From an uncultured delta proteobacterium (lineage in GTDB: Bacteria; Desulfobacterota; RBG-13-43-22), in assembly GCA_963790475.1 (NCBI GenBank), contig CAWBOS010000010.1, positions 1,536,001-1,600,000 on the forward strand: DNA of 64,000 nucleotides, read 5' to 3'. This document shows, piece by piece, positions 1-32,831 of this stretch. Below the pieces are notes generated by a model. That model was not told where the DNA came from and searched no databases. It saw nothing but the letters and a program-made list of their open reading frames with translations. The position numbers were made by a program, and so were the translations under genes. Numbering within the stretch: the first letter of the stretch is position 1; each line of letters opens with the position of its first letter.

Positions 1-58
1 GACCGCGAGGGTCGGGGGATTTTGAGTCCCCTGCGTCTACCAGTTTCACCACTCCGGC
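1..58 (-). tRNA. tRNA-Leu(CAA), 3' end beyond window edge
   Basis: Reverse complement reads GCCGGAGTGGTGAAACTGGTAGACGCAGGGGACTCAAAATCCCCCG...; anticodon arm GGGGA-CTCAAAA-TCCCC followed by a long variable arm. Confidence 0.93.
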
Positions 59-170: not shown

Positions 171-246
171 GGGGCTGTAGCTCAGCTGGGAGAGCGCTTG
201 ACTGGCAGTCAAGAGGTCGACGGTTCGATCCCGTTCAGCTCCACCA
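171..246 (+). tRNA. tRNA-Ala(GGC), integration target of the island
   Basis: GGGGCTGTAGCTCAGCTGGGAGAGCG...; anticodon arm CTTGA-CTGGCAG-TCAAG; GGTTCGATCC T-loop; encoded CCA. Confidence 0.97.
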
Positions 247-247
247 A
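201..247 (+). repeat. attL core (47 bp)
   Basis: ACTGGCAGTCAAGAGGTCGACGGTTCGATCCCGTTCAGCTCCACCAA, identical to 59438-59484. Confidence 0.95.
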
Positions 248-256
248 TGAAAAATC

Positions 257-292
257 AAGGAGTTAGCCGTCACTGGTTAGCTCCTTTTTTTT
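257..292 (+). terminator. Rho-independent terminator after tRNA-Ala
   Basis: AAGGAGTTAGCC...GGTTAGCTCCTT hairpin followed by a T-run. Confidence 0.75.
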
Positions 293-1361
293 GTAAATTG
301 TGCTCTTTTTGTGCACTTGATTTTTCATTCATGGCTGAATCAAGAATCTTCACGGCGTTGACCTTATGACTCGGTGCAAGATGGGCGTACCTGAGGGTCA
401 TAGTCAAAGTTTTATGGCCCAATAACTCTTTAATGGTGGTGAGATCTACCCCACTCATTACAAGATGAGAGGCAAAGCAATGCCTCAGATCATGAAAGGT
501 AAAATCTTTAATTCCTGCTTTACAACAAGCAGTTTTAAACGACCGCTTAACGTCCTGGTAGTTTTTCCCTGTTTTAGTTTCATAGAATACCCAGGGAATA
601 TCCAATCTTCTTGGTCTCTTTTGAGTTCCTTTAAAGAGGTTTTCCAAGGATTCTTTGAGGGTCTGGTTAATCGGAATCTCCCTTCTTTCTCCATTCTTGG
701 TATGATCCAGAAGAACAAACCCATGCTTCAGATCCACCTGATCCCATCGTAGATTGAGAATCTCCGATTTACGACATCCGGTATTTAGGGCCATAGTAAC
801 AATGGGTTTCAAATGAGAATCACAGTGGTCTAAGAGACTTTGGATCTCTTCTTTAGAAAGATACCTTAACCGCCGGTTATTTTCTTCAAGCAGTTTTACT
901 TTCCTGATCCGCCTTAAAGTTTCTTCTTCCACCATATCCCATTCAACCGCCTTGGTGAACATATGCTTGATCGTGGCCAAAAACCGGTTGATTGTGGCCG
1001 GCTTATTGCCCTTATTGATTCTCTCTGTCTGGTATTGCTCAAGAAGCATAGAAGAAAACCGTCTCAGGGGCATATACCGAAAGGCAACAGTTAATTGATC
1101 GATCAGATAAGATTTGCTTTTAAAACACCTTTGCCTTTCAGCCCATTTAATATATTCTTCTGAAAGCTCCTTGAAACTGAAGTTGGCAATCTTCCTGACC
1201 TCCGGTTGTTTTCCTTCCTTAATAGTCTGTCTTCTTTTAATGAGTAGGGTCTCGGCATCCTTGAATTTAGACTCTTTCGATGATTCTCGTATAATCCGCC
1301 CATCAAGCCCGACATACCTGATCCAGTAAATATTTCCCCTTTTATAAATTCCTTTTGCCAT
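270..1361 (-). CDS. int: Tyrosine recombinase/integrase
   Basis: Motifs TGCRKSE, FHDLRH, LLGH and TLRYAH; N-terminal arm-binding region GIYKRGNIYWIRY. Start placed at ATG 1361 behind a GGGGGTG RBS. Confidence 0.95.
   Translation of the reverse strand: MAKGIYKRGNIYWIRYVGLDGRIIRESSKESKFKDAETLLIKRRQTIKEGKQPEVRKIANFSFKELSEEYIKWAERQRCFKSKSYLIDQLTVAFRYMPLRRFSSMLLEQYQTERINKGNKPATINRFLATIKHMFTKAVEWDMVEEETLRRIRKVKLLEENNRRLRYLSKEEIQSLLDHCDSHLKPIVTMALNTGCRKSEILNLRWDQVDLKHGFVLLDHTKNGERREIPINQTLKESLENLFKGTQKRPRRLDIPWVFYETKTGKNYQDVKRSFKTACCKAGIKDFTFHDLRHCFASHLVMSGVDLTTIKELLGHKTLTMTLRYAHLAPSHKVNAVKILDSAMNEKSSAQKEHNLQKKGANQ
298..316 (+). repeat. Putative integrase arm-type binding sites
   Basis: TTGTGCTC/TTGTGCAC with an 11-bp period; related pairs at 1630-1649 (inverted) and 59300-59318. 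Confidence 0.6.
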
Positions 1362-4166: not shown

Positions 4167-5972
4167 TCACCCATGAACGATCTGAAATCCGCTCGGTGTC
4201 AGCTTGCCGAGCGGACTCAAAAGACCGGCTTTGATGGCGTCCTTTTTGATCTTGGTAATATAGCTCTTGGCAACCCCGACCTGTTCTTTGATCCCATCAT
4301 ATGAAATGCCCTCATCGAGGAGGCGCAGGATTTCCAACCGGGTCTGCTTTTTAACGTTACCCCAAGACCAGATCATTCCGCCGGTCGGGTCTTCAATTAA
4401 CTGGAATTGACAATCTTGAATTAAAGGGAGGTCTTTTGTATTCACCCGGGCCTTTGAGAACGATACGATAAATTTCGCTCCGTCCTCTGCGGTATAATCA
4501 AATGGTTTTTTAAGAACTATCGAATAATCCAGATTGTCTTCTCGGGCACTGGTTCCCCTTTGTTCACCACTTTTGCCTGTGTGGTGAAGCATCAACGTTG
4601 ATATTCCAGCAAAGCGCAGGTCCAGCAGCCAAGCATTTATGGGGCTCCATTCCTTCGCTGAATTTTCATCAATTCCACCGGTCAGGGAAACCAGGTTGTC
4701 GATAATGAACAGCTTAATGTGCCTGGTCAAAAGCAGCCTTTTGACCGTACCCCGCCAGGTCTCGTTTAACAGATTAGCCCGTTGTAGCCCGGCCGCACTC
4801 GCCATGGCGTCGGAGTAGACGTAGAGAGGGGCTTTCCGGATGTTATTTGGATTGAGAGAAACAATCCGTTCTTGAGTATCAGTGGTGCTCATTTCACCAT
4901 CCAGGACCAAGGTTGAAACGGCCTCAGTCTGCCATGGTCCGAATGACTCATTACGTGTGATGGCATCAGCTATTGAATCCGCGAACCAAGTCTTACCGGT
5001 CCCCCGGGGTGCTGTTAATAAGCCGGTGCTATTTTCCTGCAACCAGGGACTAACAATTTTTCTTCGTTCAGGCAATTCAACCCGAATGAAGTCTCCGGCC
5101 TCCATGACGATATCGTCCAGGGTCTTTTTATGAGGCGGTTCATATTTTTGGGCCCTCTCGATCATTAAGGCCAGTTGGTCCCTTGCTAATTTTGAATTCC
5201 CGACTTTCACAATCCAGTCGGACATATCCCCCTTGCTTGGAAGATCCGGGAGGTCCAGCCATTTCAGTGAAGCCGCAATACCTCTTAAAGAGGCCCCAAT
5301 TTTAACCATACTTTCGCGGCCCACTCCATCGTTGTCAGGAACGAGGACAACTCGTTTTCCTTTTAAGGATGAGCTATATTCGGCCCGCCATTTCCCAGCC
5401 CCCATGGGAGAAGTCGTTGCGACAAAACCCAGGGCCTTAAGATTTTCAACATCCTTTTCGCCTTCAACAATAATGACTTCTTCCGCTGATGTAATTGCTG
5501 GCAAATCATACAAAACCGGTTCGATGCCTTTCAGGTTCCAAATCCAACCACCGTTTCCATTCGGGCGCCGCTGAGAAAAGCCTTTGGGCTCGAAACGGGC
5601 GACCTGAAAGACAAGATTTCCTTTTGCGTCGACATAATCGTAAGTTTTAACGATCCGACGCTTTTGCTCCTCATGGGATATTTCGAAATCATTGGAAATC
5701 CCACGGAGTATTTTTCCAAAATCAGTTTTGGTCTCCAGGCCATTGATCTTCCCGTAAAAATGAATGATATCGCCCTTTTTCCCGCATCCATGACAAAAAT
5801 ATTGTCCGTTTTGGTTATTAAAATTGAAAGAAGGGTCTGAGTCCGCGTGGAAAGGACAAAGGGCCAAAAATTCATCGCCGCCGATTTGCTTGACTTTTTG
5901 AAGATATTTCGAATAAAAAGTCTGATAATTTCCCTTGAAATAATTCTGTATCGCTTCCTTAGTGGTATCCAT
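4167..5972 (-). CDS. Primase-helicase (CHC2 zinc finger + TOPRIM + AAA/RepA-like helicase)
   Basis: CPFH...CHGC; IIVEGEKD and LVPDND; Walker A APRGTGKT, IIDNL and LHHTGK. Confidence 0.92.
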   Translation of the reverse strand: MDTTKEAIQNYFKGNYQTFYSKYLQKVKQIGGDEFLALCPFHADSDPSFNFNNQNGQYFCHGCGKKGDIIHFYGKINGLETKTDFGKILRGISNDFEISHEEQKRRIVKTYDYVDAKGNLVFQVARFEPKGFSQRRPNGNGGWIWNLKGIEPVLYDLPAITSAEEVIIVEGEKDVENLKALGFVATTSPMGAGKWRAEYSSSLKGKRVVLVPDNDGVGRESMVKIGASLRGIAASLKWLDLPDLPSKGDMSDWIVKVGNSKLARDQLALMIERAQKYEPPHKKTLDDIVMEAGDFIRVELPERRKIVSPWLQENSTGLLTAPRGTGKTWFADSIADAITRNESFGPWQTEAVSTLVLDGEMSTTDTQERIVSLNPNNIRKAPLYVYSDAMASAAGLQRANLLNETWRGTVKRLLLTRHIKLFIIDNLVSLTGGIDENSAKEWSPINAWLLDLRFAGISTLMLHHTGKSGEQRGTSAREDNLDYSIVLKKPFDYTAEDGAKFIVSFSKARVNTKDLPLIQDCQFQLIEDPTGGMIWSWGNVKKQTRLEILRLLDEGISYDGIKEQVGVAKSYITKIKKDAIKAGLLSPLGKLTPSGFQIVHG

Positions 5973-6105
5973 TCCGAGCCTCAAAAATTATTTTTTAAAT
6001 TGGCCGATAAACGATCAGAAGGACGAACATCACCCCCCGAATCAAGCTGAGGACATCCGCTTACCATAAGCTCACCGGGGTTGCCGTGGGCATCCCGTGA
6101 TGGTT

Positions 6106-6405
6106 TTATTTTTCGAATTTCCGAAAAAATCTCTTGGTCCATGATTGTGGGGAGACAACCCTTGGTCTTTGACCTTCAACCAATTGCCGAAAATACATAT
6201 TCATCCCACGAAGAACCTCATCGATAATGGGTCGAAAAACCTCTTGAATGTCATAGTCATAGTAAGTAGGAAGTTCAGCATCCTCAATTTGACAGGTGAC
6301 TAAGCCAGAATCGCCCTTTGTCACCCTTACCTGGACGTTGAAAAAAACTGATCCCATTTTTTCTGTCTTAGGGCCCTGGTCGAACAATCCCAAAGTTTCT
6401 TTCAT
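6106..6405 (-). CDS. Hypothetical protein
   Basis: 99-aa ORF co-oriented with and upstream of the primase. Confidence 0.55.
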   Translation of the reverse strand: MKETLGLFDQGPKTEKMGSVFFNVQVRVTKGDSGLVTCQIEDAELPTYYDYDIQEVFRPIIDEVLRGMNMYFRQLVEGQRPRVVSPQSWTKRFFRKFEK

Positions 6406-6505
6406 CTTGGTATCCCTGCTTTCTCTTTTTTCTTACGTGTCGACCATTCGGGTTAAAGGCCCTCAACCAGGACCTCACAGCCATCTGATGTTTTCCTTAT
6501 AGCAG

Positions 6506-6625
6506 TTGTTGTTTATAAAAAAGATTGATCCAGCCCATAACTTGGGGATGGAAGTAATGGGTTGACAAATCCTTTGCTGGCCAGTCCCTCCCTTTAACGG
6601 GTGATTCAATTCTCGTATATTTTGC
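6506..6625 (-). repeat. Duplicated leader element, copy 2
   Basis: Matches 3171-3292. Confidence 0.75.
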
Positions 6626-6781
6626 TAAAAACAGGAAAATGCTGGAAGGATGCCCTTAAGGTTATCGCTGGCCGGTTTTCAACCTTATACCCGGCCTGAA
6701 ATAACTCAGGGTTTCATGGAAAGGATGGTTTGAGGCCTTAAACTCTGGGGTAGGTAGGAATTTGGGGGGAATTAAAAAGAA

Positions 6782-8434
6782 CTATGACGGTAGTGTGATT
6801 TTATTGAGGAGATTTTGGAGTCCTTTTGGATTACGGCTTATTCTTTTTCCAATGATCTGTAAGGAAATTTTTCCGGGTGTCATTGAAAACTCTTTTGAGT
6901 AAAAAGAGCATTCTTTACATTTTGGGTCCTCACCAGGCGAGCATTGCTCTTTTCTGATTTTCAGTTTGAGTATATTACAATAAATTATCTTTGATTTATC
7001 CCCTTTTTCAAATAAAGTGCTTGCTAAAATCGAGAGTTCATCTTTCCTTAACACTTCCAGGATTTTTGGAAATGCCACCTTAATTTCTTCTGCAGCATCT
7101 TTGTCTTCTAAGCTTACATACTCGAATTCGCGCCTAATATCATTAATGATGTCCAGGAGTTCCTTATGGTTATATTTTAACAGGACAATTTGGTAAGGCA
7201 TTATAATAGAGCGTCCCCGGGTGCCTCCTTGGGTTTTCGGAAAAAATTCATGCAATTTATCGAGTACAGACTTATCCAATTCCGGCCAGCTTTTTCTTTC
7301 TAAAACTTGGGCTCGGGCCTTATATACGCAATCTATCCACTGTTTCTCTATTGTGTCAGACATTATTGGTGAAAGAACACGCCGTTTTTTTAGATCCTGT
7401 TTCAATAATTGACGAAAATCGTCATCAGTCCAATTCTTCACCTTAAAATCCATTTCCTCAAAAGCCCCGCGGATGGCAGTGATGATTTCTTTCAAAATTT
7501 TCGAGATCTGCAATTTTTTGTCCTTCTCAGCCTCCTCGGCCATCTGTATAATCAATTTTTCTATAACCAGCATCTTCTCTTTAGGCTTATTCAAGTCCAA
7601 CCCATAACCCTTGGCGATGTCTCCTATCTTCTCGGGGCCGTAAGCCGTAGAGATCCGATTCATCACCTGTTTGAATCCATCTCTCAAAAGCCCGTGGACT
7701 CCCAAAAGTCCAATCAGTTCATAACCTGTGGTTTTTTGAATATCGGTTATGCAATCGGCTACCAAGTAAATAGTATTGGTCTCAGGGTCAATGGCCCCTT
7801 CGTATTGACCTTTTTCCGAAATATCAACCGAAAGATGCTTGGGAAGATCACTTATGCGGGCTACCACTGTAATTTTAATATTCGGAATCATCTGAACAAT
7901 TTTGGAGCAAATACGATCAAGAATCGTCCTCATCAGACCGATGTTCATGTTCAAATCACCTGCCCCATAAGAATCAAATATTTTCATTACCTCAATAATT
8001 TTTTCTTCCGGACAGGCTAAATCTTTTAACTCTCCCTTGTTCCATCTATAGAGAAATGGATACTTCCTTCGTATTTCTCCTATTACAGATAAGTCCGGCG
8101 GTTGCTTATGGGAATCAATATCCTCTTTCCCTCTAAAAAGAAAAGGGAGCCTCCTTTTCATTTCTTCTATTTCAGATAAATTCAGAGGCTGCCCATTGAG
8201 ATCGGTATCCACTTCACCCACAAGCTTCCCTGTGGGAGCCTCTATATGCCATTTTTTACGACATATTTTTATATGTTCATCGCGGAGAAATTCATTTTCA
8301 AATGTCTGAAGGCAAAGTGGGCATGATTGAGACTCTTCGGGTTCGGGAGGTTCTGCTGGAGAAGCTTTCGTGAGGGGAATAGTTTTCTGTTGCTTTTTAG
8401 TCTTTCGGGTTAAAGTCTGTGATTTATCCTTCAA
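6782..8434 (-). CDS. Hypothetical protein with C2H2-like zinc finger and degenerate zincin-like (polyvalent-protein) domain
   Basis: CPLC...HIKIC; EGAIDPETNTIYLVADCI...YELIGLLGVHGLL; TTG start behind a CAGGAGG RBS. Confidence 0.7.
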   Translation of the reverse strand: MKDKSQTLTRKTKKQQKTIPLTKASPAEPPEPEESQSCPLCLQTFENEFLRDEHIKICRKKWHIEAPTGKLVGEVDTDLNGQPLNLSEIEEMKRRLPFLFRGKEDIDSHKQPPDLSVIGEIRRKYPFLYRWNKGELKDLACPEEKIIEVMKIFDSYGAGDLNMNIGLMRTILDRICSKIVQMIPNIKITVVARISDLPKHLSVDISEKGQYEGAIDPETNTIYLVADCITDIQKTTGYELIGLLGVHGLLRDGFKQVMNRISTAYGPEKIGDIAKGYGLDLNKPKEKMLVIEKLIIQMAEEAEKDKKLQISKILKEIITAIRGAFEEMDFKVKNWTDDDFRQLLKQDLKKRRVLSPIMSDTIEKQWIDCVYKARAQVLERKSWPELDKSVLDKLHEFFPKTQGGTRGRSIIMPYQIVLLKYNHKELLDIINDIRREFEYVSLEDKDAAEEIKVAFPKILEVLRKDELSILASTLFEKGDKSKIIYCNILKLKIRKEQCSPGEDPKCKECSFYSKEFSMTPGKISLQIIGKRISRNPKGLQNLLNKITLPS

Positions 8435-8444
8435 TTCCGCCTCC

Positions 8445-8532
8445 TGTGGGCACTCCTGGAAGTTTCCAGAGGAAGGCCGGCCAGGATTTCCGGCCGTGTC
8501 GATCCTGATGATCAGTCAGGATCTATCCCCTG
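8445..8532. ncRNA. Candidate structured RNA (c4-like, uncertain)
   Basis: Stacked hairpins CTGGAA..TTCCAG, GGCCGG-CCAGGATTT-CCGGCC and TCCTGA-TGATCAG-TCAGGA directly upstream of the 550-aa gene. Confidence 0.4.
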
Positions 8533-8705
8533 GAAATTAAAAATAAAAAAATAGCTCTCTTGAAACTCCATTGTGCTTTCTTCTCTCGTCTCCCGAGACA
8601 TCATGCCTATTCCGAAAATTCCGGCCAGGGGGTCGGAGCGAAGCGACGCCGGGTGAAGCATTATACAATGTAGTGGGCCACCTAAGTCAAGGGAGACGTG
8701 TTTTT

Positions 8706-8746
8706 GGTAGTGGGTCAGTTTGAAGTAATCAAACTGACCCACTACC
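8706..8746. mobile_element. 41-bp minimal IS/MITE with 18-bp perfect TIRs and 8-bp target duplication
   Basis: GTGTTTTT|GGTAGTGGGTCAGTTTGA-AGTAA-TCAAACTGACCCACTACC|GTGTTTTT. Confidence 0.85.
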
Positions 8747-8847
8747 GTGTTTTTGGCATGGAATCTCCTTTGAGGGTTATTTTATCCTGAAAACCATTTT
8801 TCAGCTAAAAAAGGCTGTAAATATAGGCGGAATACGTATTTTTAGGA

Positions 8848-8892
8848 CCTCTCACGCCGGTAACACGGGTTTGAACCACATTGGGACCACCA
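8848..8892 (+). other. Degenerate 3' half of tRNA-Glu(CTC), att-core relic
   Basis: CCTCTCACGCCGGTAACACGGGTTTGAACCACATTGGGACCACCA. Confidence 0.75.
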
Positions 8893-9007
8893 ATATTTTC
8901 AGTAGCTTATAGTTAAAAAGACGTTACCAAACTGCTACCAACAATATTTCGCTACCCTTGAAAAAATCTCCTTCCTCGTCTTATAAGGAAACGACTTATA
9001 CTGCAAA

Positions 9008-9036
9008 ACTCTTAATCAGTAGGTCGGTAATTCGAT
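9008..9036 (+). other. Degenerate tRNA-Lys(CTT) fragment, att-core relic
   Basis: ACTCTTAATCAGTAGGTCGGTAATTCGAT. Confidence 0.55.
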
Positions 9037-9048
9037 CTCTTTGGGGAG

Positions 9049-9098
9049 ACAGATTCCTAATCTGTAGGCCGTGAGTTCAAGTCTCGCCGGGGGCACCA
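9049..9098 (+). other. 3' half of tRNA-Arg(CCT), att-core relic
   Basis: ACAGA-TTCCTAA-TCTGT anticodon arm, GTGAGTTCAAGTCTCGC T-arm and GGGGGCACCA end; no 5' half upstream. Confidence 0.85.
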
Positions 9099-10589
9099 TT
9101 TAAATAAGTATAAAATAAAAGGACTTATGCCACAAACAAGCTTTAAATCCTTTTCTTTTTTTCCCAGTGTATCGTCTTTACTTCTATTTTGTCCCCACCC
9201 TGTCCCCACTATTTAAAAGACGGTAGCCACTCCCCATTCCCCTCAGACTCGTAAACAAAAGGCCGCGTTGATTCCTAACCAGCCCCTTTCATGAAGCCAC
9301 TGGCTTACTGTGCATCCCATGGCGAGACACTGTTGAATGGAATCCCGAGTTGTCCGGGTATTTAACTCCTATTTCTTATAGGTCGCTGGTAGGTCATCAA
9401 CCTCCCGGCCAACATTTCCATCCCTTTCCGCTTATCGTTCTTCCGGGATATCGTGACAATCGTTACACCAGATCTTCGTTAATCCGTGACACGGTATACG
9501 AGTTTTAATTTAAACCAGGCAAGCTGATCGATAATGAAGAACTTCCCTCTGTGTGGTCCATAACAAAGCCCCGTAAAGCCTTCTGTGGGACGGTCTGTCC
9601 GAGGCATGAGTCTTTGTATGTCCCGGAAAATTGCCCTACATAAACGCTCCTGGTGAGCCCGAGAAGGTCATACAATCATCAGCTCAATGGACCCCCCGGA
9701 ATCCATCAAGATCATCGTTATTGATTATCTGGAAGTCAGCCGCCGCTATGTATCCGGCCCCTAAGCCAGGGGGGGTATACCCATCAGTCCTATGGGCATT
9801 GGCCTAAAGGCCCTTCTGTCCACATATATCGGCATGTATGAATCGACCTTCTAAAATTTTTCGGGAGTATCCAGTCCAATTCTGTGAGATTCGAGTCCCA
9901 AAATTTTCCCGGGGAAATTAATCGATTTCTACCATATCCGAGTCTAAAAATTTTTCGGGTAGTTTTTATAGTTTTGGGTAAAAAAACTGTATACAGTGTC
10001 CCGTTAACTGGGAACCGGACTTAGAAAAATATCCTGGGGGATTGGTGTTGTTCCGGGGTTGTTTAAAGAACACTTCAAAATATTGGGGTGGGTTCGTGTT
10101 GCCAATAAAGCTGATGGGAGTACCACCCATCAATTTCTTTCGCAATCGAAGTGCTGTATATGACAATCTAATAATTTTCCGGAATGGTTTGATGGTATCC
10201 TGCGTTTTCTGATTTTAAAGGGGACACTGGGTGGTATGGAAGATGTTTTTGAGATAACAGTTTCGCTTAAATTGGTTTGAAGCGGAAAAGGAAAATCATG
10301 TTGTCGAAATACTGAAATATTTCAGGATGGGAATGTTTCCCTTAAAACAAATATCGGTTATAAGTTTCTTACTGATACCCTTTGTATGTGATATAATACG
10401 AATTTAAAGGTTACAAAAGGTTAATCTTTGATTATTAGTTAACTAAGTTGTATTAAAATATTAACTATTTATATACTCATATTTTATTATGAATGATCTA
10501 TAACTCTTTTAAATATATACAAGAATTCAATTTTTTATATTAATTATTGGAAGGATAGCTATTATATTTTTTAATTTTAGGGGGGGCCT

Positions 10590-11378
10590 ATGGGAACTTG
10601 TTTCGTCATACAACCATTCGATAAGGGGGTTTATGATAAAAGATATGAGGACGTATTTGCCCCAGCAATAGCTTCTGCTGGACTAAAGCCGTACCGGGTA
10701 GATCGTGACCCAGCAGCAAGTATACCAATTGAAGAAATTCAATCCGGAATACGAAACGCAGAATTATGTCTTGCTGAAATAAGTACAGACAATCCTAACG
10801 TTTGGTTTGAACTCGGGTACTCAATTGCAAGTTCCAAAGAAGTTGTATTAATTTGCTCCTCAGACCGTAAGACAAAATTCCCTTTTGACGTTCAGCATAG
10901 GAATATTACAATATACAAGTCAGAATCAACAAGGGATTTTGATGAATTAAAAAATAATATCACTAAGAGGATAAAAGCAATCTTAGCCAAGGAGGAAACT
11001 CTTGGCCGGATGTCCAATATGCCCTCTATTGCGGAAACCGAAGGTCTGGGACACCACGAGATTGTTGCCTTGGTGACTATTGCAGAGAATATTGACTCGC
11101 CTTCAGATAAGGTTTCGGCTTACACGATCAAAGAAGATATGGATAGAGCTGGTTTTACAAAAATCGCGGTCACTTTGGCTCTCAGCACACTGTTACGAAA
11201 GGACTTGATTGAGGATCAAATGGATTCAGACAGGAACGGCAATGAATTCTTTGTTTATTCCCTATCCGGAAAAGGAATTGAGTGGCTTCTCCAGAATCAA
11301 GACAGGCTGGTACTTAAGAAAGAAAAAGGTGAAGCTGATATTCCATCGCAAAATCCGGATGAAGATATACCATTCTGA
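10590..11378 (+). CDS. Nucleoside 2-deoxyribosyltransferase/TIR-like domain plus C-terminal wHTH-like domain
   Basis: CFVIQPF...YRVD...AEISTDNPNVWFELG...PFDV. Confidence 0.8.
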   Translation: MGTCFVIQPFDKGVYDKRYEDVFAPAIASAGLKPYRVDRDPAASIPIEEIQSGIRNAELCLAEISTDNPNVWFELGYSIASSKEVVLICSSDRKTKFPFDVQHRNITIYKSESTRDFDELKNNITKRIKAILAKEETLGRMSNMPSIAETEGLGHHEIVALVTIAENIDSPSDKVSAYTIKEDMDRAGFTKIAVTLALSTLLRKDLIEDQMDSDRNGNEFFVYSLSGKGIEWLLQNQDRLVLKKEKGEADIPSQNPDEDIPF

Positions 11379-11461
11379 TCTTTCGCACACCAATCGGTTT
11401 CAAGGGACTACTTCAAAGTTGCGGATTCTGAACGGCATCCTTCGTTATCAAAGGAGAACTT

Positions 11462-12202
11462 ATGGACGAAGTCAAGCGGGTCCTTCGATATACACTTCCA
11501 GGTATGGCGAGCCTAAGCCAGCTTTTACTCGCGGTTTATTTTACCAGGAGCCCAGCAATAGAGTTATTGCTTAAAAATCTCGACAGTCACACTGGCCTAA
11601 TTGGTGGGGTTATTGCTGTCTTCATAACATCTGGAGTCGTTGGCTACATCTTAGCAAGTGCATACCACACAGCTTACTGGACAATTTTTTCTTGGTTTTC
11701 GATTGATCACCTGACTATCGTGAGAAACCTCATTTCACTTGATAAAATGGTGGTAACTGACTCCAATGAAAATCCGATACCAAAGAAAAACCTGAACAAA
11801 CGTGACGCATGGAAGATTCTCACATACTACTGGTATGCAAATCTTGAAGAATCGAAAGAACTAAAAGGATTAAACAAGATTACAGACCGTTTGGCCGATT
11901 TTACTCACGCCCATGGAACTTCATTCTTGGGGACGACGCTCGGTCTTTTGGTGTGGTTTTTCTGGTTCTCAGATTTTGCAGTTGGAATATTGTCCTGCCG
12001 AGATTACATGGTATTGGGATACTGGCTAATTCTGCTCATAATCTATGGCACAGGTCATCACTTTAGTAATAAGGCACTTGAGTCTATGGCAAATGCTGCT
12101 GTTCTCTCCCATATGGAAAAGATGGGCAAATTCCCAGTTATTATACCATCTTTCAGTAAAGGAAAGGGGAAACGAGTTAGTTTCCTAAGAGAAAAATGCT
12201 AA
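11462..12202 (+). CDS. Multi-pass membrane protein
   Basis: About four hydrophobic segments; AAGGAG RBS. Confidence 0.75.
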   Translation: MDEVKRVLRYTLPGMASLSQLLLAVYFTRSPAIELLLKNLDSHTGLIGGVIAVFITSGVVGYILASAYHTAYWTIFSWFSIDHLTIVRNLISLDKMVVTDSNENPIPKKNLNKRDAWKILTYYWYANLEESKELKGLNKITDRLADFTHAHGTSFLGTTLGLLVWFFWFSDFAVGILSCRDYMVLGYWLILLIIYGTGHHFSNKALESMANAAVLSHMEKMGKFPVIIPSFSKGKGKRVSFLREKC

Positions 12203-16171: not shown

Positions 16172-17128
16172 ATGCCAAATGATTGCCCGGTTTGTCAGTC
16201 GGCATTAACTGTTGTTGACCAACTTAGTGGGAGAGATGCAGCCTTTTTCTCCTGTCCACTCTGTGGAGAATTTGTTCTTTCTGGGACCCTATTCACTATT
16301 CTTCCCCATATCCTTCAAGATAACAAGGACGCAAGTGCCAAAATAAGTCATGCGATTAGAACTATGCAAAACATAAACAAAGGAGCAGAACTGGACACAG
16401 ATACAGTAAATGAAATTTTAAAGCGACCTTTGCCAACAATTCGTGAGCAGGCAGATCTTCTCATTCGTTGGATCGCTGAAAATGTCGAAGGTCCTGGCGA
16501 GACTATTCTGGTTGAACCGGAAAAGCACCGTTCAATTGTTGGTGCTAAATCAGATGAAGGTTTTGGTCTTATCCTTCGATACCTTTTCGATGCTGGTCTT
16601 GTTGAAGGAAACCTTATCGATGCAATGAGTGCCCCAGGTAGAGGCCTGGTAACGCTTTCATTTAAAGGCTGGGATTACTATGAGCAGTTACGTAGGGGAT
16701 CAAAGAGTTATCGAAAGGCTTTCATAGCGATGAAATTTGGAGACCCGATACTTGACACGATTATGTCTGAAATTTTTAAGCCATGTGTTAAGGATGCCGG
16801 GTTTGAACTCTGTCGTTTGGATGATACCCCCAAAGCTGGCCTCATTGACGACAGATTGCGTGTGGAGATCCAATCTTCCGACTTCTTAATTGCAGATTTA
16901 ACACACGAAAATCCAGGGGCTTATTGGGAGGCAGGATATGCCGAAGGGTTGGGAAAACCGGTGATTTACACTTGTGAAAAAGGAAAATTCGAGAAGGACA
17001 AGACCCATTTTGACACAAATCATCATCTCACAATTATATGGGATAAGGACACCCCGGAGAAAGCAGGAGAAAATTTAAAGGCTACTATTCGTGCAACATT
17101 GCCTCATTTAGCTAAACAGGAAGATTAA
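16172..17128 (+). CDS. Zn-ribbon + wHTH + NDT/TIR-like domain protein
   Basis: CPVC...CPLCG at the N-terminus; KAFIAMKF...IADLTHENPGAYWEAGYAEGLGKPVIYTC...HFD. Confidence 0.8.
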   Translation: MPNDCPVCQSALTVVDQLSGRDAAFFSCPLCGEFVLSGTLFTILPHILQDNKDASAKISHAIRTMQNINKGAELDTDTVNEILKRPLPTIREQADLLIRWIAENVEGPGETILVEPEKHRSIVGAKSDEGFGLILRYLFDAGLVEGNLIDAMSAPGRGLVTLSFKGWDYYEQLRRGSKSYRKAFIAMKFGDPILDTIMSEIFKPCVKDAGFELCRLDDTPKAGLIDDRLRVEIQSSDFLIADLTHENPGAYWEAGYAEGLGKPVIYTCEKGKFEKDKTHFDTNHHLTIIWDKDTPEKAGENLKATIRATLPHLAKQED

Positions 17129-17681: not shown

Positions 17682-20600
17682 ATGATGGAAGAAATTAAGC
17701 CAGGGACTATCCTTAAAGGCCCGAATTGGCCGGAACCGGTCGAGATCAAGCTCTTCGAGGACTTTGGAGAGTATGTCCATATTGTCGGGGCCACGACCCT
17801 TTCCTCAACTTATATAGACCAGATCATCCCGAGAAATGAATTCCCCTTCCCCCCTCCCTCTACCGAACCAGACCTTTTTAACGAAGAACCATGGAAAGTC
17901 TTCTTGGCCCTGGAAGCCCGGCGTTATCGTTTCGCCTCCATCTACGACCCCCTCCTGGCTATGAATACTTCCAAGGTAGATCCCCTCCCGCATCAAATCG
18001 AAGCGGTTTATGGGTACGTCCTTCAACTGCCCCGCATTCGGTTTCTGATTGCAGACGACCCTGGAGCGGGCAAAACGATTATGGCTGGACTGATAATTAA
18101 GGAACTTAAACTCCGTAACCTGATAAGCCGTATCCTGATTATTTCTCCAGGCCACCTCAAAGACCAATGGCGACGAGAACTGGCTGATCGCTTCGAGGAA
18201 AAGTTCATTCCCATCGACCGGGGCCTCTTGGATGCCTTTTACGCTGAAAACGTCTGGTCCCGAGAAAATCAGATCATCGCTTCAATGGATTTTGTCAAAC
18301 AGGAAACCGTCCTCCCTTCCATCATCTCTGCCACCCATTTTGACTTGATCATCATCGACGAAGCACACAAATTGAGTGCCTACCGATATGGGGACAAAAC
18401 CGAGCGGACTGGTCGTTATAAGATGGGAGAGGCCTTGTCCCGTATCACCGAACACCTCCTCTTTTTGACTGCTACCCCCCATAAAGGAGATCCGGAGAAC
18501 TTCCGCCTTTTTCTGGATCTCTTGGAGCCAGGCTTTTTTGCCACCAATGAAATGCTTCAGGAGTCCATCGCCAACAAGGATAATCCCTTGTTTATCCGGC
18601 GAGTCAAAGAAGACTTAAAAGATTTCGAGGGTCGCCCCTTGTTTTTGCCACGCTCGGTTAAAACCATTTCCTTTAACCTTGGCTCGGGATCCCCTGCCGA
18701 AAAAGACCTTTACAATGCCCTTTCTAAGTATGTAAATTTCCAGTACAACAAGGCCCTAAGTAAAGACAAGAAACGCAATATCGCTTTTGCCCTGGTCATC
18801 CTGCAACGCCGCTTGGCCTCCAGCACCTTTGCCCTTTTCCGATCCCTGGAACGCCGAAAAAAACGACTGGAGGAGTTGCTCAAAGGAGTCCAAAACAAAA
18901 ATAAAGTCCAGGAAGAAGGCTTTGATTTCGAAACGGTGGAAGACCTGAGTGAGGAAGAACGCTGGAAGGAAGAAGAGATCTGGGAAACCTTGAGCGTAGC
19001 AGAAAACCGGGAGGAACTGGAAAGGGAAATCAAGACCATTAACGACCTGATGTCCCAGGCCAAGGACATTATCCAGGAGGAGTCTGAGATCAAGCTGCGA
19101 GAGCTTAAAAAGACCCTCCAACAGCTATATCAAATCTACCCCGATCCCAAAGACAAAAAGATCCTCATTTTCACCGAGTCGAGGGACACCCTTGATTATC
19201 TGAACAAAAAGATCAGGGAATGGGGTTACACCTCCAATATGATCCATGGCGGCATGAAATTGGAAGACAGGGTCAAGGCCGAAAGCATTTTCAAAAACGA
19301 AACGGAAATTCTGGTGGCCACCGAGGCTGCTGGTGAGGGCATCAACCTTCAGTTCTGCCACTTAATGATCAATTATGACATCCCCTGGAATCCAAACCGT
19401 CTTGAACAACGAATGGGACGAATACATCGCTATGGTCAACAAAAGGAGGTATCGGTTTTTAACCTGGTAGCCGAAGATACTCGGGAAGGTAAGGTCCTCC
19501 ACTGCCTTTTCGAAAAACTGGATGAAATCAGGAAGGCTATGGGCAGCGATAAAGTTTTTGATGTCCTGAGCGAGGTCCTCTACGACAAGAGTCTCTCCCA
19601 GCTTCTCATGGAGGCCGCCGCCAATGCCCGCAACATAGATGAAATCCTGAAAGACATGGATATAGAAGTCGATGAAAGTTATATCGCCAGAGTGAAGGAA
19701 AACCTGGGTGAGACCCTCGCCACTCATTATATAGATTACACCAGGATCAAGGAAATGGCCGAACAAGCCCGAGAGTATCGCCTGATCCCGGAATATACCG
19801 AAGCCTTCTTTAAAAAAGCCTATATCAAAGCCGGGGGTAAAATCAAAGAGGTGAAGCCGAATTTCCTGTCAATCGAGGCCGTTCCTCCCGATCTCCGCCG
19901 GATTGCTGAACAGGAAAAGTTCAAAAAGTTTCATGGTGACTTGATCCGCAGGTATCCCAAGGCCACCTTCGATAAGGAGCAGGCCTTCAGGAACCCCGAT
20001 CTGGAATTCATATCTTTTGGCCATCCCTTGTTTGAAGCGGTTCTCTCCTGGATCGAGATCAGCTTCTCTGATGCCCTATTTAAAGGAGCGTTATTTACCG
20101 ATCCCGAGGGCCGGATGAACGGTTATCTGCTTTTCTACGAGGGAGAAATTAAAGACGGAACTGGGCACGTAGCCGGGAAAAGGCTTTTTGCTTTTTATAT
20201 GGAATCCGGAGGGGTCCGACCGGTTTCCCCGGCCATCATTTGGGACTTGGCCGAAGGCGGAATCACCTCAGGGAAGACCGAAAATTTAGAAAGCCTGAAA
20301 AAAAATGTCACTCCCCAGGCCATCCAGAAACTTAAGGAATACCGGGAGGAGTTGCTGAAGGAAAGGGAACGACAGGCCAACATAAAACAAAAATACGGTA
20401 TCAGATCCCTGGAATATCTGATTGTCCGACTGGATGGAGAACTAATCCAACTTTACGACCGAAAAAATCTGGGGGAACCTGTTGAACTTCCCATTCACAA
20501 CAAGGAAGAACGGAAGGCAAAATATGAAAAGGCCCTGGAGGAACTAAGGGAAAATATCGAAAAAGAACGCAGCCTGACCATGACCATGCCCCGGTTTATC

Positions 20601-21038
20601 GGAATGATCCGGGTTGTCCCCAGTGACAGGGTCGAAGAGGCAATGAAGTCCGATCCGGAGATTGAGCGGATCGGGATGGAAACGGCCATGGAGTATGAAA
20701 AAGATCAAGGTAGGGAACCCCAGGACGTATCCGCTGAAAATCTTGGTTTTGATATCAGGTCCTTCGGGCTCGGACAAAAAACCCGTTATATTGAGGTGAA
20801 GGCCAGGTCGTATTTAGGACCTGTAGCCTTGACCCCTAATGAATGGTTTAAGGCCAGACGCTTCGGGGAGGATTATTACCTGTATGCCGTGATGAATGCC
20901 GCACCCAACCCAGAGCTTTATATCATCCCTAACCCGGCCCTCACCCTCCAAGCGGAGGAAAGAATCGAAGTGGTTCGTTACATCATTCCTTTTAATGAAT
21001 TAATAGAAAAAGGACACAAATTAAATATTGAAAGCTAA
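17682..21038 (+). CDS. SNF2-family helicase with C-terminal DUF3883 nuclease domain
   Basis: LIADDPGAGKT, IIDEAH, LTATP and QRMGRIHRYGQ; C-terminal GFDIRS..YIEVKAR. Confidence 0.92.
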   Translation: MMEEIKPGTILKGPNWPEPVEIKLFEDFGEYVHIVGATTLSSTYIDQIIPRNEFPFPPPSTEPDLFNEEPWKVFLALEARRYRFASIYDPLLAMNTSKVDPLPHQIEAVYGYVLQLPRIRFLIADDPGAGKTIMAGLIIKELKLRNLISRILIISPGHLKDQWRRELADRFEEKFIPIDRGLLDAFYAENVWSRENQIIASMDFVKQETVLPSIISATHFDLIIIDEAHKLSAYRYGDKTERTGRYKMGEALSRITEHLLFLTATPHKGDPENFRLFLDLLEPGFFATNEMLQESIANKDNPLFIRRVKEDLKDFEGRPLFLPRSVKTISFNLGSGSPAEKDLYNALSKYVNFQYNKALSKDKKRNIAFALVILQRRLASSTFALFRSLERRKKRLEELLKGVQNKNKVQEEGFDFETVEDLSEEERWKEEEIWETLSVAENREELEREIKTINDLMSQAKDIIQEESEIKLRELKKTLQQLYQIYPDPKDKKILIFTESRDTLDYLNKKIREWGYTSNMIHGGMKLEDRVKAESIFKNETEILVATEAAGEGINLQFCHLMINYDIPWNPNRLEQRMGRIHRYGQQKEVSVFNLVAEDTREGKVLHCLFEKLDEIRKAMGSDKVFDVLSEVLYDKSLSQLLMEAAANARNIDEILKDMDIEVDESYIARVKENLGETLATHYIDYTRIKEMAEQAREYRLIPEYTEAFFKKAYIKAGGKIKEVKPNFLSIEAVPPDLRRIAEQEKFKKFHGDLIRRYPKATFDKEQAFRNPDLEFISFGHPLFEAVLSWIEISFSDALFKGALFTDPEGRMNGYLLFYEGEIKDGTGHVAGKRLFAFYMESGGVRPVSPAIIWDLAEGGITSGKTENLESLKKNVTPQAIQKLKEYREELLKERERQANIKQKYGIRSLEYLIVRLDGELIQLYDRKNLGEPVELPIHNKEERKAKYEKALEELRENIEKERSLTMTMPRFIGMIRVVPSDRVEEAMKSDPEIERIGMETAMEYEKDQGREPQDVSAENLGFDIRSFGLGQKTRYIEVKARSYLGPVALTPNEWFKARRFGEDYYLYAVMNAAPNPELYIIPNPALTLQAEERIEVVRYIIPFNELIEKGHKLNIES

Positions 21039-22134
21039 CTTGGATATGATCGAAAAAAGAGTTTTTATCTTAGGGGCGGGTAGTTCGATTGCGATAAGTG
21101 GAGGAAATTTTCCAACGGTAAACGACTTTTTTATTTCAGCACAACATTTGGGATTAACCAAGAGCCCCGAATTTGAAGAAATTAAGAAATTCTTTCTAAA
21201 ATCTCTTGGGTTAAATTTATCCGGAAGGATAAACATTGAAGATTTGTTCACTCATATTGAGATAGAACTTGAACGTTTCGACTCTCCAGAAATTAATAAA
21301 ATCCGCATACAGTTGCTCAAACTCATAAGAGAAATCCTTATCGGATTAGAGAAAGAAATAAAGAATAATCTCAAACTGGATGAGGTTCTTAATCAAAAAT
21401 GGAAAATCCGGGAGACCGATACACTTATTACTTTTAATTGGGATCTACTTCTTGATGATATGTTCGAACGGAAAAATATTTTGAATGATCATCGAAAGAA
21501 TTACCATGTTGGATATTCCCTTCCTCAATACAGGAATTTTATAAAAAATTTATCCGTACACAGCGAATTTAGTATAGATCATATGTCAATTAGCGATCCA
21601 TATATTAAATGGGATTCAAGTAATGGATATATCTTAAAATTGCATGGATTTGTTGATTGGTTCCATTGCATAAATGAAAAATGCCGAGGATGGCAAAAAG
21701 TTTTTCCTTTATCCAAACCCCTCCAGACTCATAATTGTTCCGAATGTCATGAACCTTTGGAGAATCTCCTTATTCCCCCTATTCTTAATAAAACCTATCG
21801 ACAATATTCTTTTATACGAAGGATATGGAATTTAGCAGCTCAAGAGGTCCGATCCGCCACCGAAATTATTGTTTGGGGTTATAGCCTTCCTCCCACGGAT
21901 TTCTATAGCAAATGGCTTCTTAGACAAGCCCGAACAAATTTATTAAAAAAAATGGTAATAATAAATCCATATCTCCTATTGGGTAAAAAAGATAAAAAGA
22001 TAAGAAAATCCTTTTTAAAAAATTTTTCAGAAATATTTAATGGAATCGAAAACCTTGAAATTACATTATATGAGTTCTTTGATGATTATTGCAAGGGGTT
22101 AGATATAAAGAAAAAGTATAAACTTTCTATTTAA
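21028..22134 (+). CDS. SIR2-like protein
   Basis: VFILGAGSS, ITFNWDLLLD, LKLHG, two Cys pairs and WGYSLPPTD; AT-rich relative to its flanks. Confidence 0.85.
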   Translation: MKANLDMIEKRVFILGAGSSIAISGGNFPTVNDFFISAQHLGLTKSPEFEEIKKFFLKSLGLNLSGRINIEDLFTHIEIELERFDSPEINKIRIQLLKLIREILIGLEKEIKNNLKLDEVLNQKWKIRETDTLITFNWDLLLDDMFERKNILNDHRKNYHVGYSLPQYRNFIKNLSVHSEFSIDHMSISDPYIKWDSSNGYILKLHGFVDWFHCINEKCRGWQKVFPLSKPLQTHNCSECHEPLENLLIPPILNKTYRQYSFIRRIWNLAAQEVRSATEIIVWGYSLPPTDFYSKWLLRQARTNLLKKMVIINPYLLLGKKDKKIRKSFLKNFSEIFNGIENLEITLYEFFDDYCKGLDIKKKYKLSI

Positions 22135-22150
22135 ATTATTATAGAAGAAA

Positions 22151-24909
22151 ATGGATAAACGCTTTATCGAAGAAAGCTTTCCCGTAAAAGAGGTCAGTGT
22201 CGAGTCGGCCAAGGAGAAAAATATCCGCCATGGCCATATTTCCACCCTGCATATCTGGTGGGCCAGGCGTCCTTTGGCTTCCTCACGGCCACCAACTATG
22301 CGGCTTTGATACCTCCTGCCAAAACCCCCGAAGAATGGAACCAGCAGCGGAACTTCATCATTGAATTTTCAAAATGGGAGAATTCCTTGAACGGGCAAAT
22401 GATCCAAAAGGCTCGTGAGGACATCCTAAAGGCCAATGGGGGAAAGCCCCCGAAAGTCCTGGACCCTTTTGGCGGTGGAGGTGCTATTCCTTTGGAAGCC
22501 CTTCGTCTCGGATGCGAAGTTTATTCGAACGACTACAACCCAGTGGCTGTATTGATTCAGAAATGTACGCTTGAGTATCCCCAGAAATATGGGCAAATGA
22601 CCGGCAAAGGTTCCACCTCACCTTCAAAGAATCCAAAACAGATGACAATGCTGATGGACGAGCAGATGGAATCTGGCAGAAAATGTAACCTTCTGGATGA
22701 TGTCAAAAAGTGGGGGACCTGGGTCCTGGAGGAAACCAGAAAGGAAATCGGTAAGTATTACCCCCCCGACCCTGATGGATCGATCCCAGTTGGCTATATC
22801 TGGGCCAAGACCATACCTTGTCAAAACCCGGCCTGTAGGGCTGAAATCCCGCTGTTACGCCATCTCTGGTTGGCCAAGAAGGCTAATAACAAGGTGGCCC
22901 TATATCCCTACCCCGATGGGAAAGAAGTAAAGTTAAAAATTGTGGGGTCAGGGTATGAAAAAATGCCTCAAGGATTTAATCCTGATGACGGGACTACGGC
23001 CAAGGCTATAGTGACCTGCCCCGTCTGTGGATCATCGGTGGAGGCCAATAATACACGACGACTTTTTCAGGAAGGGAAAGCTGGACAACGACTGGTAGCA
23101 GTAGTCCTGCATAAATCGGGAGTGAGCGGGAAACGATATCGCTTGGCTACAGGAAAAGACCAGGAGATTTTTAACCAATCCGCCGTCAACTTGGAAGAAA
23201 AACGTCAAACCCTTATGAAGGAATGGGGTCTGGACCCAGTGCCGGATGAAGAGATACCTACAACTCCTTCAAATACAATGGGAGGAACAAATCGTGTTTT
23301 AAACTATAAAATAAAAACTTGGGGGGATCTTTTCAACTCACGACAAAAACTCGCCCTTATTACATTCGTTGACCAGGTTCGTCAAAGCTGGGAGAAAATA
23401 AAAGAAGAGACGAAGGATGAGGATTATGCCAAGGCAGTTGTTAGTTACTTATCTCTTAGTGTTAACAAAATCGTTGACTCATGTAGCTCATTATGTAGGT
23501 GGAAACCTGATACAGTTCAAGTAATACCCGGATTAAGTGGCAGACAAGCAATCTCCATGATTTGGGATTATTTTGAACTAAACCCAATATCGGGAATAAG
23601 TAGAAGCTGGGATAAGACTTTAGATGAATTGATGACAAGCTTTAAAATTCTTAATGGCCTTGAGAAGTTTGCCATCGTATCACAATCTTCGGCCACTAAC
23701 CTTCTGCACACCGATAATTTCTTTGATGCTGTTTTTACAGATCCGCCTTATTATGACAATGTCCCATACTCTTATCTCTCCGATTTCTTCTATGTCTGGT
23801 TGAAACGTTCACTGGGGTCCGTTTACCCAGAATTATTCTCAACTCCACTGGTTCCCAAAAAACAGGAGATCGTAGCCTACTCCAACGGCCCCGGAGGAAG
23901 GGAAGACGGCAAAGCCTTTTTTGAAGAGATGCTAAAAAAATCTTTCCAGGAAATCCATAGAACTTTGAAACCGAAAGGAATTGCAGTAATCGTTTATGCT
24001 CATAAATCAACTAAAGGCTGGGAGAGTTTGATCAACTCTTTGCTCGACTCGGGCTTGGTCATAACCGGTGCTTGGCCAATTCGTACCGAAATGCAGGCTC
24101 GAATGAACGCCCAGGAAACTGCCTCACTGGCATCTTCAATATATATAATCGCTCGAAAAATGAAACGTGAAGCCACAGGGTTTTACAATAAAGTAAAAGA
24201 AGACCTTCAGGTCCATCTGAAGACCAAGCTGGATCGTCTCTGGCAGGAAGGTATCGGTGGAGCGGATTTTTTTATTTCTGCCATTGGATCAGCTATAGAA
24301 ATATTTGGTAAATATGAAAAGATCATGGACTACGAAGGGAATCTGATCCGGGCCGACCGTCTGCTGGAGGACATCCGGGGGATCACCACCGATTACGCTG
24401 TCCGCCAGATCCTCCACAATGGTTTTGCCGAAGAGATTACCGACCTCACCCGGTTTTACGTTCTGTACCGCTGGAATTATGGCAAGGCCAAAATACTTTT
24501 CGACGAGGCCCAGAAATTGGCCAAGGGTTGTAGTATGGACCTATCAAAAGAATGGGGCCGCCATGGCTTCATTAAGAAAGAGAAAGAATTCATTCATATC
24601 CTTGGTCCCGAAGAACGGAAATTGGAAGACTTTAAAAATTCCAGGGAGTTAATCGACGTGCTACACCATGTCCTTTTACTTTGGGAGAACAGCAAGCGAG
24701 ATAACCTAATCACTGTTTTAAAAGAAACCGGGTTCGGAAATCGAGAAGCTTTCTATCGGGTGGCACAAGCCGTATCGGAGACCTTGCCCTTGGAGAGTAA
24801 GGAGAAAAAACTCCTGGATGGGTTTCTTGCTGGTCGGGAAAAGGTTCAAGAGGCGGTAAGGGATATATCAATAATTAGAGAAGAACAGAAAGGGTTTAAA
24901 TTCGAATGA
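22151..24909 (+). pseudogene. DUF1156 adenine DNA methyltransferase with a 1-nt frameshift near 22288
   Basis: ATG 22151 gives MDKRFIEESFP...HIWWARRPLASSR; the frame then shifts to ATNYAALIP...VLDPFGGGG...TDPPYYD. Confidence 0.88.
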
Positions 24910-32745: not shown

Positions 32746-32831
32746 GATGATGATCTGCGAAGGAGGACTTCTCATACCTCTTGCAAATAGAACCCATCCG
32801 GGCTAATCTTGCCCATCTTGCGGAGGTCAGA

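Follow-up and report, generated by a model that had tools for sequence, protein, structure and literature searches.

In the anticodon-centred tDNA islands of the Islander/TIGER type, as excerpts of Hudson et al. (2015; PMC4383910) describe them, the split gene is made whole again by a tRNA 3′ fragment that the element brings with it, the fragments run from the anticodon loop to the 3′ end, and a tyrosine integrase adjoins the tRNA. tRNA gene fragments are well known as integration scars (van der Gulik et al., 2023; PMC9897764, excerpt). The tripartite integrative and conjugative elements (ICEs) of Mesorhizobium, in the portion of the report drawn on here, have several attachment (att) sites, each with an intact integrase and a directionality factor, in a set order (Haskett et al., 2018; PMC5882170). 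In this study, we analysed a 64,000-nt stretch of DNA from an uncultured delta proteobacterium (hereafter the window; G000:C10:1536001-1600000, with G001, G004 and so on as labels for the genomes of relatives), in which 3′ fragments of tRNA-Glu(CTC), tRNA-Lys(CTT) and tRNA-Arg(CCT) are stacked inside a 59-kb island at tRNA-Ala(GGC).

The stack is probably a graveyard of dead or dying attachment sites, the scars of past swaps of integration machinery, and its sites are most likely no longer working parts. It would consist of integration-module remnants of at least three other tRNA-targeting elements, kept inside an island that now uses tRNA-Ala(GGC) and its own integrase. What is unusual is the density, with three different cores in 250 bp, two stacks in the one genome and one site that keeps both arms.

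Three tRNA cores between backbone and cargo

The 50 tRNA genes and one tmRNA gene that ARAGORN found in the host genome were BLASTed back onto it, which gave, outside genes, 19 match rows at 16 places. Nine of the 16 places are a repeat of a nearby same-strand tRNA, the usual mark of an integrated island, and seven of these nine repeats begin at tRNA position 31–33. The initial annotation had described Glu, Lys and Arg 3′ fragments that start near the anticodon, and BLAST against the host tRNAs confirmed all three, each on the plus strand (Table 1). When the search was restricted to positions 8400–10700, the E-values were 2e-15 for Glu, 8e-9 for Lys and 6e-25 for Arg, against 0.002 for the best of 20 shuffles. 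The Glu and Arg cores extend to the CCA, the Lys core ends in the T loop, at tRNA position 60, and the gap between the Lys remnant and the Arg unit is 12 nt. Judged by their sequence, the cores are att-type: they begin in the anticodon stem-loop (positions 32, 31 and 29), near the start of most cognate island repeats. A fourth core at 9381–9390 or 9890–9899 was considered and rejected, the tRNA-like words there being no better than shuffled sequence.

The fragments had been called foreign, and indeed they do not belong to the tRNA-Ala site; they are not foreign to the host, however, since they are copies of its own single-copy tRNAs. The real tRNA-Glu(CTC) gene is on contig C15, that of tRNA-Lys(CTT) on C12, and that of tRNA-Arg(CCT) on C10, about 1 Mb off and on the strand opposite to the stack. 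None of the three cores can thus be paired, across an integrase, with a complete cognate tRNA that shares its replicon and strand. The view that the stack marks the border between backbone and cargo held, with minus-strand backbone to its left and mostly plus-strand defence cargo, from 10.6 kb, to its right.

The defence-gene neighbours, together with an alignment of the Rfam tRNA model to 9035–9087, where a D-arm-like hairpin precedes the Arg core (22.9 bits, below the gathering score), could be taken as signs of a decayed tRNA gene cluster or of expressed tRNA-half RNAs, for example decoys for anticodon nucleases. Against this, all the pieces start at the att crossover position and their flanks are the att flanks of other islands; promoter-like sites in 8400–10700 number 4 vs 4.8 expected from shuffles, and none precedes the cores. 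We therefore hold an origin of this kind to be extremely improbable.

At the Glu site, the P side and the P′ side each have a counterpart in a relative. Window 8769–8893 (P flank plus Glu core) matches, at 78% identity, a G013 sequence (L025) ending in a tRNA-Glu(TTC) 3′ fragment, which is followed by a terminator-like flank, the layout of an attR. Window 8848–8968 (the Glu core with the next 76 nt) matches the real G007 gene for tRNA-Glu(CTC) and its downstream DNA at 88% identity, and the flank motifs are kept there as GTTGCCAA and GCTACCAA. Because the P side thus matches an attR-type and the P′ side an attL-type sequence, the Glu site comprises P arm, core and P′ arm, which is the layout of an unrecombined attP or of a tandem junction. 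Its core carries three changes, one turning the T loop from TTCGAAC into TTTGAAC and two unpairing two of the five T-stem pairs, and since the T arm is damaged in this way, integration via the Glu core would spoil tRNA-Glu(CTC). The real tRNA-Glu(CTC) of the host looks unoccupied. With a damaged core and neither an adjacent integrase nor a remnant of one in 8400–10700, the site is not a full unrecombined attP.

The Arg site, by comparison with its homologues, is a core plus an element-side P′ arm, and the Lys site is a bare truncated core. Window 9050–9221 (Arg core plus flank) is 82% identical to the host's real tRNA-Arg(CCT) plus downstream DNA, hairpin and TGTCCGCAC pair included. Homologues of the Arg flank also follow Arg fragments in G001 and G004, tRNA-Leu(TAA) in G020 and G014 (another genus), and the host tRNA-Leu(CAA), where an 88-aa integrase remnant survives. 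The downstream flanks of real tRNA-Arg(CCT) at seven loci of relatives (six genomes) are all different, none resembles the Arg flank of the window, and the motif is missing from them; because these real-gene flanks share nothing with it, the Arg flank is taken to be element DNA rather than native chromosome. The terminator-like stem reported after the Arg core is present but weak, with a fold of −7.4 kcal/mol (z −0.48) that is no better than shuffles, vs −18.3 kcal/mol (z −2.6) for the homologous hairpin at the real host gene. On its P side, the Arg core has no copy of the TGTCCCCAC type. The layout proposed earlier for the stack, that of an attP or a tandem junction, therefore fits the Glu site, but neither the Arg site, which is without a P-side motif, nor the Lys site.

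Two of the real cognate genes have flanks of their own to record. The real tRNA-Arg(CCT) (G000:C10:484584-484779; L006) has an element-type flank, with a strong hairpin and TGTCCGCAC twice; neither an integrase nor a downstream repeat of its 3′ half was found there, and given such a flank without integrase or repeat, its present 3′ half probably comes from a lost element. The DNA after tRNA-Lys(CTT) is a mosaic (G000:C12:1505144-1505573, L008; L174 2707-2800), in which TTGCCCTGCCTCTTAAGCTAA after the gene is common to the host and G006. Past TTGCCCTGCCTCTTAAGCTAA the arm motifs diverge, being of the GCTAC type in the host and of the TGTGAAG type in G006, with different integrase clades at the same target.

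Arm-type motifs, integrases and related islands

Both motif pairs of the stack were said to have the 11-bp period of the Ala site, and this is so: the GTTACCAA/GCTACCAA pair (8923/8934) and the TGTCCCCAC pair (9190/9201) share it with the TTGTGC pairs of the Ala island (298/309 and 59300/59311). Three motif types recur at an 11-bp period directly after tRNA genes. TTGTGC and its relatives TGTGCAG and TGTGAAG accompany the clade of the window integrase, and the GCTACCA and TGTCCCCAC types both differ from this type of the resident integrase. The GCTACCA type is also found after the real tRNA-Lys(CTT) and after tRNA-Val(GAC), where it lies beside an intact 411-aa integrase; the tRNA-Val(GAC) island carries two GCTACCA copies at the 11-bp period on its P′ side, and its P side has GCAACCA/GCTACTA. 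At tRNA-Lys(CTT), where the arms are of the GCTAC type, the surviving integrase remnant shares 43% identity with the Val integrase. The paired TGTCCSCA motif has only two occurrences in the 6.3 Mb of the host genome, and the GYTACCAA pair is by our estimate not rare by chance alone, its weight resting on conservation in relatives.

A scan of metagenome contigs for TGTCCCCACNNTGTCCCCAC gave at least 115 stretches, and 80 fetched loci (L046–L125) were examined. A full same-strand tRNA lies upstream of the motif in 11 of the 80 loci, at 35–86 nt in ten of them, the nearest tRNAs being of nine kinds, and a tRNA 3′ end lies at 35–86 nt in four further loci. Downstream, a tRNA 3′ half is found about 110–140 nt off in 12 of the 80 (two on one contig), with its T loop 144–183 nt from the motif, which is P-arm geometry. 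The tRNA fragments were partly read by eye, and ten were confirmed by BLAST; dozens of the motif hits could, by our estimate, be chance matches in so large a collection. Among the 55 loci that have a nearby open reading frame (ORF), nine have an integrase near the motif. The neighbouring integrases are P4-like, SAM_5-like and others. A literature search on the motif letters gave nothing bacterial among the matches listed. Taken together, the sequence link between the motifs and att sites is strong and makes the motifs candidate arm sites; the pairs in the stack are putative former arm-binding sites of integrases.

The host genome has 20 PF00589 matches, and only at tRNA-Ala and tRNA-Val(GAC) is the integrase both whole and adjacent to the tRNA; six tRNA loci, including those of tRNA-Lys(CTT) and tRNA-Leu(CAA), retain integrase fragments only. 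The tRNA-Ala integrase at 270–1427 is the only PF00589 match in the window, which thus does not provide one intact recombinase per extra att site. Within 8400–10700, no integrase remnant was detected by tblastn with three integrases, by tblastx against the tRNA-Leu(CAA) remnant or with the PF00589 profile. Three public DNA metagenome runs cover parts of 8400–9700, and no RNA run was among the matches listed; the contigs of the three runs on 6000–12000 are short and thin, no joints are visible in them, none spans the stack, and they are uninformative on recombination or expression.

Sister elements place the same type of integration module at other tRNAs. The integrase and HTH module is present at tRNA-Ala(GGC) of G004 (97.9% amino acid identity for the integrase), and sister integrases lie beside the real tRNA-Arg(CCT) of G013 (73.6%) and the real tRNA-Lys(CTT) of G006 (69.9%), the latter in an 8.8-kb element closed by a Lys fragment. 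In these sister elements the HTH_17 protein adjoins the integrase, with 45–92% amino acid identity. The stack begins 315 nt past the int-alpA-like region that closes the backbone, and the attR of the 8.8-kb element of G006 lies 1.9 kb past the same region. By this comparison, the stack is roughly at the place expected for the attachment site of a minimal element. The G004 tRNA-Ala island has a right end that matches window 59298–59501 at 91% identity. Inside that island, 2.9 kb in and on the other strand, is a tRNA-Arg(CCT) copy of full length that carries mutations, the anticodon loop included, and is accompanied by the flank seen in the window (83% over 113 nt); this copy is another fossil.

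Directly behind the arm region, several tRNA loci share a module of about 220 nt (G000:C13:158655-158877; L012; L019): tRNA-Thr(CGT) in the host, tRNA-Glu(CTC) in G007, and tRNA-Arg(CCT) in G006 and G007. The final 80 nt of this module (TTGACTT ... TTGGCAACC) are found at about eight places linked to islands, window 36520–36596 among them, and may be a shared promoter region.

Such sharing of att-proximal modules between islands, as at the Thr(CGT), Glu(CTC) and Arg(CCT) loci, would also suit a different route, in which the units arose as tandem junctions or attL sites at the real tRNA-Glu, -Lys and -Arg genes and reached the tRNA-Ala island afterwards, when related islands recombined by homology or underwent rearrangement with each other. 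A core with P′ and without a P arm has the look of a collapsed tandem junction, G001 has integrase, core and P′ in sequence at its Arg fragment, and the host's real tRNA-Arg(CCT) and tRNA-Lys(CTT) bear decayed attL-type flanks. Three transfers into 250 bp on one strand, however, demand a further cause, and no chromosomal flank of a donor locus was brought along. We consider this origin unlikely; it differs from a graveyard of sites left in place in its route alone, and the present data do not separate the two.

A second stack and the proposed making of the first

A second multi-core stack is present in the same genome (G000 C12:854738-855806; L007 2739-3806), where a real tRNA-Ser(CGA) is followed by Lys(CTT), Arg(CCT) and Ser fragments within 1.1 kb. 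The Lys fragment matches at 45/48 and the Arg fragment at 45/46, and the Ser 3′ fragment has a flank that duplicates the one of the tRNA-Ser gene. Each core has its own downstream repeat (AGTTTAGATA twice, TTGGTGG three times and GGTGGC twice), and over 250 nt the Arg unit shares 73% identity with the real G007 gene for tRNA-Arg(CCT) plus downstream DNA. Beyond the stack lies restriction-modification cargo: a Dcm methylase and Vsr, together with a type I restriction system. Apart from their cores, the two stacks show no relationship. Two different cores within 1 kb were not among the matches listed for 40 relatives (at most 12 candidates per genome scored), and no two-core locus was found in the 80 metagenome loci, where only host-tRNA-like fragments are detectable. 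Stacks of different tRNA cores were not found in the literature searched, which is no proof of absence.

The second stack bears on whether the sites might still be in use. As a working adaptor or landing pad, the Arg site, and perhaps the Glu site, would still be a substrate for the integrases of other islands acting in trans, which could capture, rearrange or move the island or its cargo; alternatively, the island could offer a docking place to incoming elements. The Arg core is identical to the host gene at 49/49 positions and both of its arm motifs are exact, the Glu site retains P arm, core and P′ arm, an intact integrase with a GCTACCA-armed island is present at tRNA-Val(GAC), and the two stacks both directly adjoin defence cargo and repeat the order Lys then Arg, all of which would suit such a role. 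Yet the Arg core is without a P-side TGTCCCCAC copy and its hairpin is decayed, a tRNA-Glu restored through the Glu core would have a spoiled T arm, the Lys core lacks its 3′ end, and the host genome has no intact cognate integrase. In addition, the homologous Arg unit of G004 has a mutated anticodon loop, a three-core stack is not among the matches listed for 40 relatives, and the 80 metagenome loci contain no two-core stack. The role of adaptor has, in our opinion, only a small chance of being right. The spare usable attP sites suggested in the initial annotation are not supported, given these defects and the lack of any integrase remnant nearby, and a working multi-attP adaptor is unsupported, with a small likelihood left to the Arg site.

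A bolder idea is a working recombination platform, in which att half-sites of different integrase clades, placed at the seam between a small replicative backbone and a cargo that has no integrase, would let any tRNA-island integrase that is present dock, capture and hand over cargo. Such a platform would be an integron-like exchange point built of tRNA cores, of which the host genome would have two, both with Lys then Arg; we think it very unlikely.

Returning to the graveyard as the preferred explanation, the stack could have been built up as follows. In a circular element, attP would be flanked by the backbone's right end and the integrase gene. A new core, new arms and a new integrase would come in when the element recombines with a different island lineage, and the older core would remain at the right end of the backbone. 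Later cargo would gather between the old cores and the current P arm, and the stacked sites would be without present function. Recombination that swaps modules should be easy here, since different islands share att-proximal modules. The observed order of backbone, old cores, cargo, Ala P arm and Ala repeat is the order that the proposed route gives.

Several observations weigh against this explanation. The Arg core is perfect beside a flank that is 82% identical to its closest copy, which at equal divergence has by our arithmetic a chance of about 6e-5, so the core would have been constrained until recently or may still be in use. Integrases with arms matching those of the stack had been named as something to look for at the cognate tRNAs; sister elements do occur at Arg(CCT) and Lys(CTT), but they carry TGTG(C/A)A arms and not the arm types of the stack. 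The stack thus does not simply document the history of those sister elements, and the idea of successive integrase swaps within a single lineage is weakened. The order Lys then Arg, on the tRNA strand, is found in both stacks despite their unrelated flanks, which hints at something beyond random debris. The simple decay of whole modules predicts integrase remnants between the cores, and there are none. In the metagenomes, the integrases beside the TGTCCCCAC pair are diverse, with at most about 30% identity between groups, and some hits of the pair sit in unrelated contexts, one of them upstream of dnaN. Finally, the way in which the stack was assembled is a matter of inference only.

If the stack is a graveyard, it is a compact record of the exchange of integration modules (core, arms and integrase) among defence islands. 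Within this genus alone, three arm-motif types and at least ten tRNA targets have been re-assorted, which helps to explain changes of landing site. For annotation, the stack is a warning that tRNA fragments inside islands need not be island ends. The TGTCCCCAC pair, which in many metagenome contigs keeps a set spacing from a tRNA-derived core on one side or the other, is a possible arm-site code and an aid to att mapping, and may be more useful than the stack itself. If it were true that the Arg site is still active, cargo could be exchanged between islands by site-specific recombination.

The tRNA-Ala island and its place among known systems

Because the 3′ half of tRNA-Ala is repeated at 59438–59483, the window contains a 59-kb tRNA-Ala island, whose features are collected with those of the stack in Table 1. 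tRNA-Ala(GGC) at 171–246 is the sole tRNA given for the window by ARAGORN and by Rfam at the gathering score, and the terminator hairpin after it folds at −18.5 kcal/mol (z −4.95). Back to back with it, at window 1–58 on the minus strand, is tRNA-Leu(CAA), with a decayed 3-kb island on its far side (G000:C10:1532889-1536058) in which an integrase remnant of 88 aa, a single TGTCCCCA motif and a repeat of the tRNA end (91%) remain.

In the backbone, the primase matched three distant loci in genome contigs, none informative on the stack. A search of the protein collection with the 550-aa ORF returned the protein itself alone, and one weak relative was found within 21 genomes of the order (its own genome included); that relative, in G004, adjoins tRNA-Ala(CGC) in another layout. 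G013 and G006 both keep the int-alpA-like stretch in their sister elements, at about 80% conservation. Window 8605–8790 holds a conserved non-coding element of about 100–180 nt, with copies at G000:C10:1532394-1532489 and in five relatives and no match to an Rfam family; the window copy has an extra near-perfect hairpin of 41 nt (8706–8746) that is missing from the other copies examined. The 1.2 kb spanning 8743–9965 is without any ORF of at least 60 aa. In the cargo, many ORFs between the defence genes (10590–33380) are without a family.

Table 1. Coordinates of the stacked sites and of the surrounding tRNA-Ala island, in window positions
Feature	Positions	Strand	Basis
tRNA-Ala(GGC), present integration target (attL core)	171–246	+	ARAGORN, Rfam
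Ala-site P′ arm: strong terminator hairpin 257–286, then TTGTGC 298–303 and 309–314	247–314	+	sequence
Tyrosine integrase of the tRNA-Ala island	270–1427	−	PF00589, E 7e-39
HTH_17 protein, excisionase-like by position (putative function)	1706–2023	−	PF12728
Primase/helicase-like backbone gene	4167–5984	−	Zn_ribbon_DnaG, Toprim, AAA_25
Orphan 550-aa backbone ORF, final gene ahead of the stack	6782–8434	−	no Pfam family
int-alpA-like RNA motif upstream of the 550-aa ORF	8454–8533	−	RF02996, 32.2 vs 35.8 bits gathering, E 3e-4
Glu-site P-side flank	8769–8847	+	homology to G013 site
tRNA-Glu(CTC) 3′ core, tRNA positions 32–76, decayed	8848–8892	+	42/45 (93%) vs host gene, BLAST
Glu-site P′ flank: GTTACCAA 8923–8930, GCTACCAA 8934–8941, GCTACCCT 8951–8958	8893–8968	+	homology to G007
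tRNA-Lys(CTT) core remnant, tRNA positions 31–60, 3′ end missing	9008–9037	+	28/30 (93%), BLAST
tRNA-Arg(CCT) 3′ core, tRNA positions 29–77, intact	9050–9098	+	49/49 (100%), BLAST
Arg-unit P′-type flank: weak hairpin 9112–9159, T run, TGTCCCCAC at 9190–9198 and 9201–9209	9099–9258	+	homology, sequence
Cargo, mostly anti-phage defence genes	10590–59246	mostly +	PADLOC, Pfam
Two TIR-like proteins	10590–11378 and 16172–17128		PADLOC
HmaA/B/C	17682–27452		PADLOC
PD-T4-3	28489–29184		PADLOC
AbiU (AbiU/AIPR)	29950–31725		PADLOC
PLD/DrmC-like protein	32781–33380		PADLOC
Ala-site P arm: TTGTGC 59300, TTGTGT 59311, 11-bp period	59300–59316	+	sequence
attR, displaced tRNA-Ala 3′ half, tRNA positions 31–76, right end of the island	59438–59483	+	46/46 identical (BLAST)

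The locus shares traits with several described systems. In the tandem accretion of ICESt1/ICESt3, every junction is reported to repeat the single tRNA or gene that heads the array. In the window that head is tRNA-Ala, and BLAST with the host tRNAs found no Ala fragment within 8400–10700, so the stack does not qualify as a tandem or accretion junction of that kind; its cores derive from three other tRNAs. A likeness remains to tandem accretion and cis-mobilizable elements such as the phage-ICE tandems (PMC13651849), in which the inner boundary between two elements likewise consists of P arm, core and P′ arm; this attP layout is also that of the Glu site. The tripartite ICEs, as portrayed in the excerpt used (PMC5882170), resemble the island in that one element has several attachment sites for different recombinases; they differ from it in that the island of the window has one intact integrase and its extra sites are damaged.

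By the description in excerpts of the Islander paper (PMC4383910), the outer tRNA-Ala island of the window fits the Islander/TIGER type fully. Unlike the fragments of those islands, the stacked ones are without a nearby same-strand cognate tRNA and have no integrase between them, and would thus be heterologous passengers at the island of another tRNA. Each of them would fail the Islander filters (cognate tDNA, integrase and minimum length), because they are unpaired and without an integrase. The closest likeness in kind is to the tRNA fragments known as integration scars, in so far as the excerpt of that work (PMC9897764) characterizes them: the stack consists of tRNA 3′ copies with element-type flanks, without a working integrase, inside a different element. 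From single scars it differs in having three tRNAs in 250 bp, two arm-motif types and one two-armed site, and in the presence of a second stack in the same genome.

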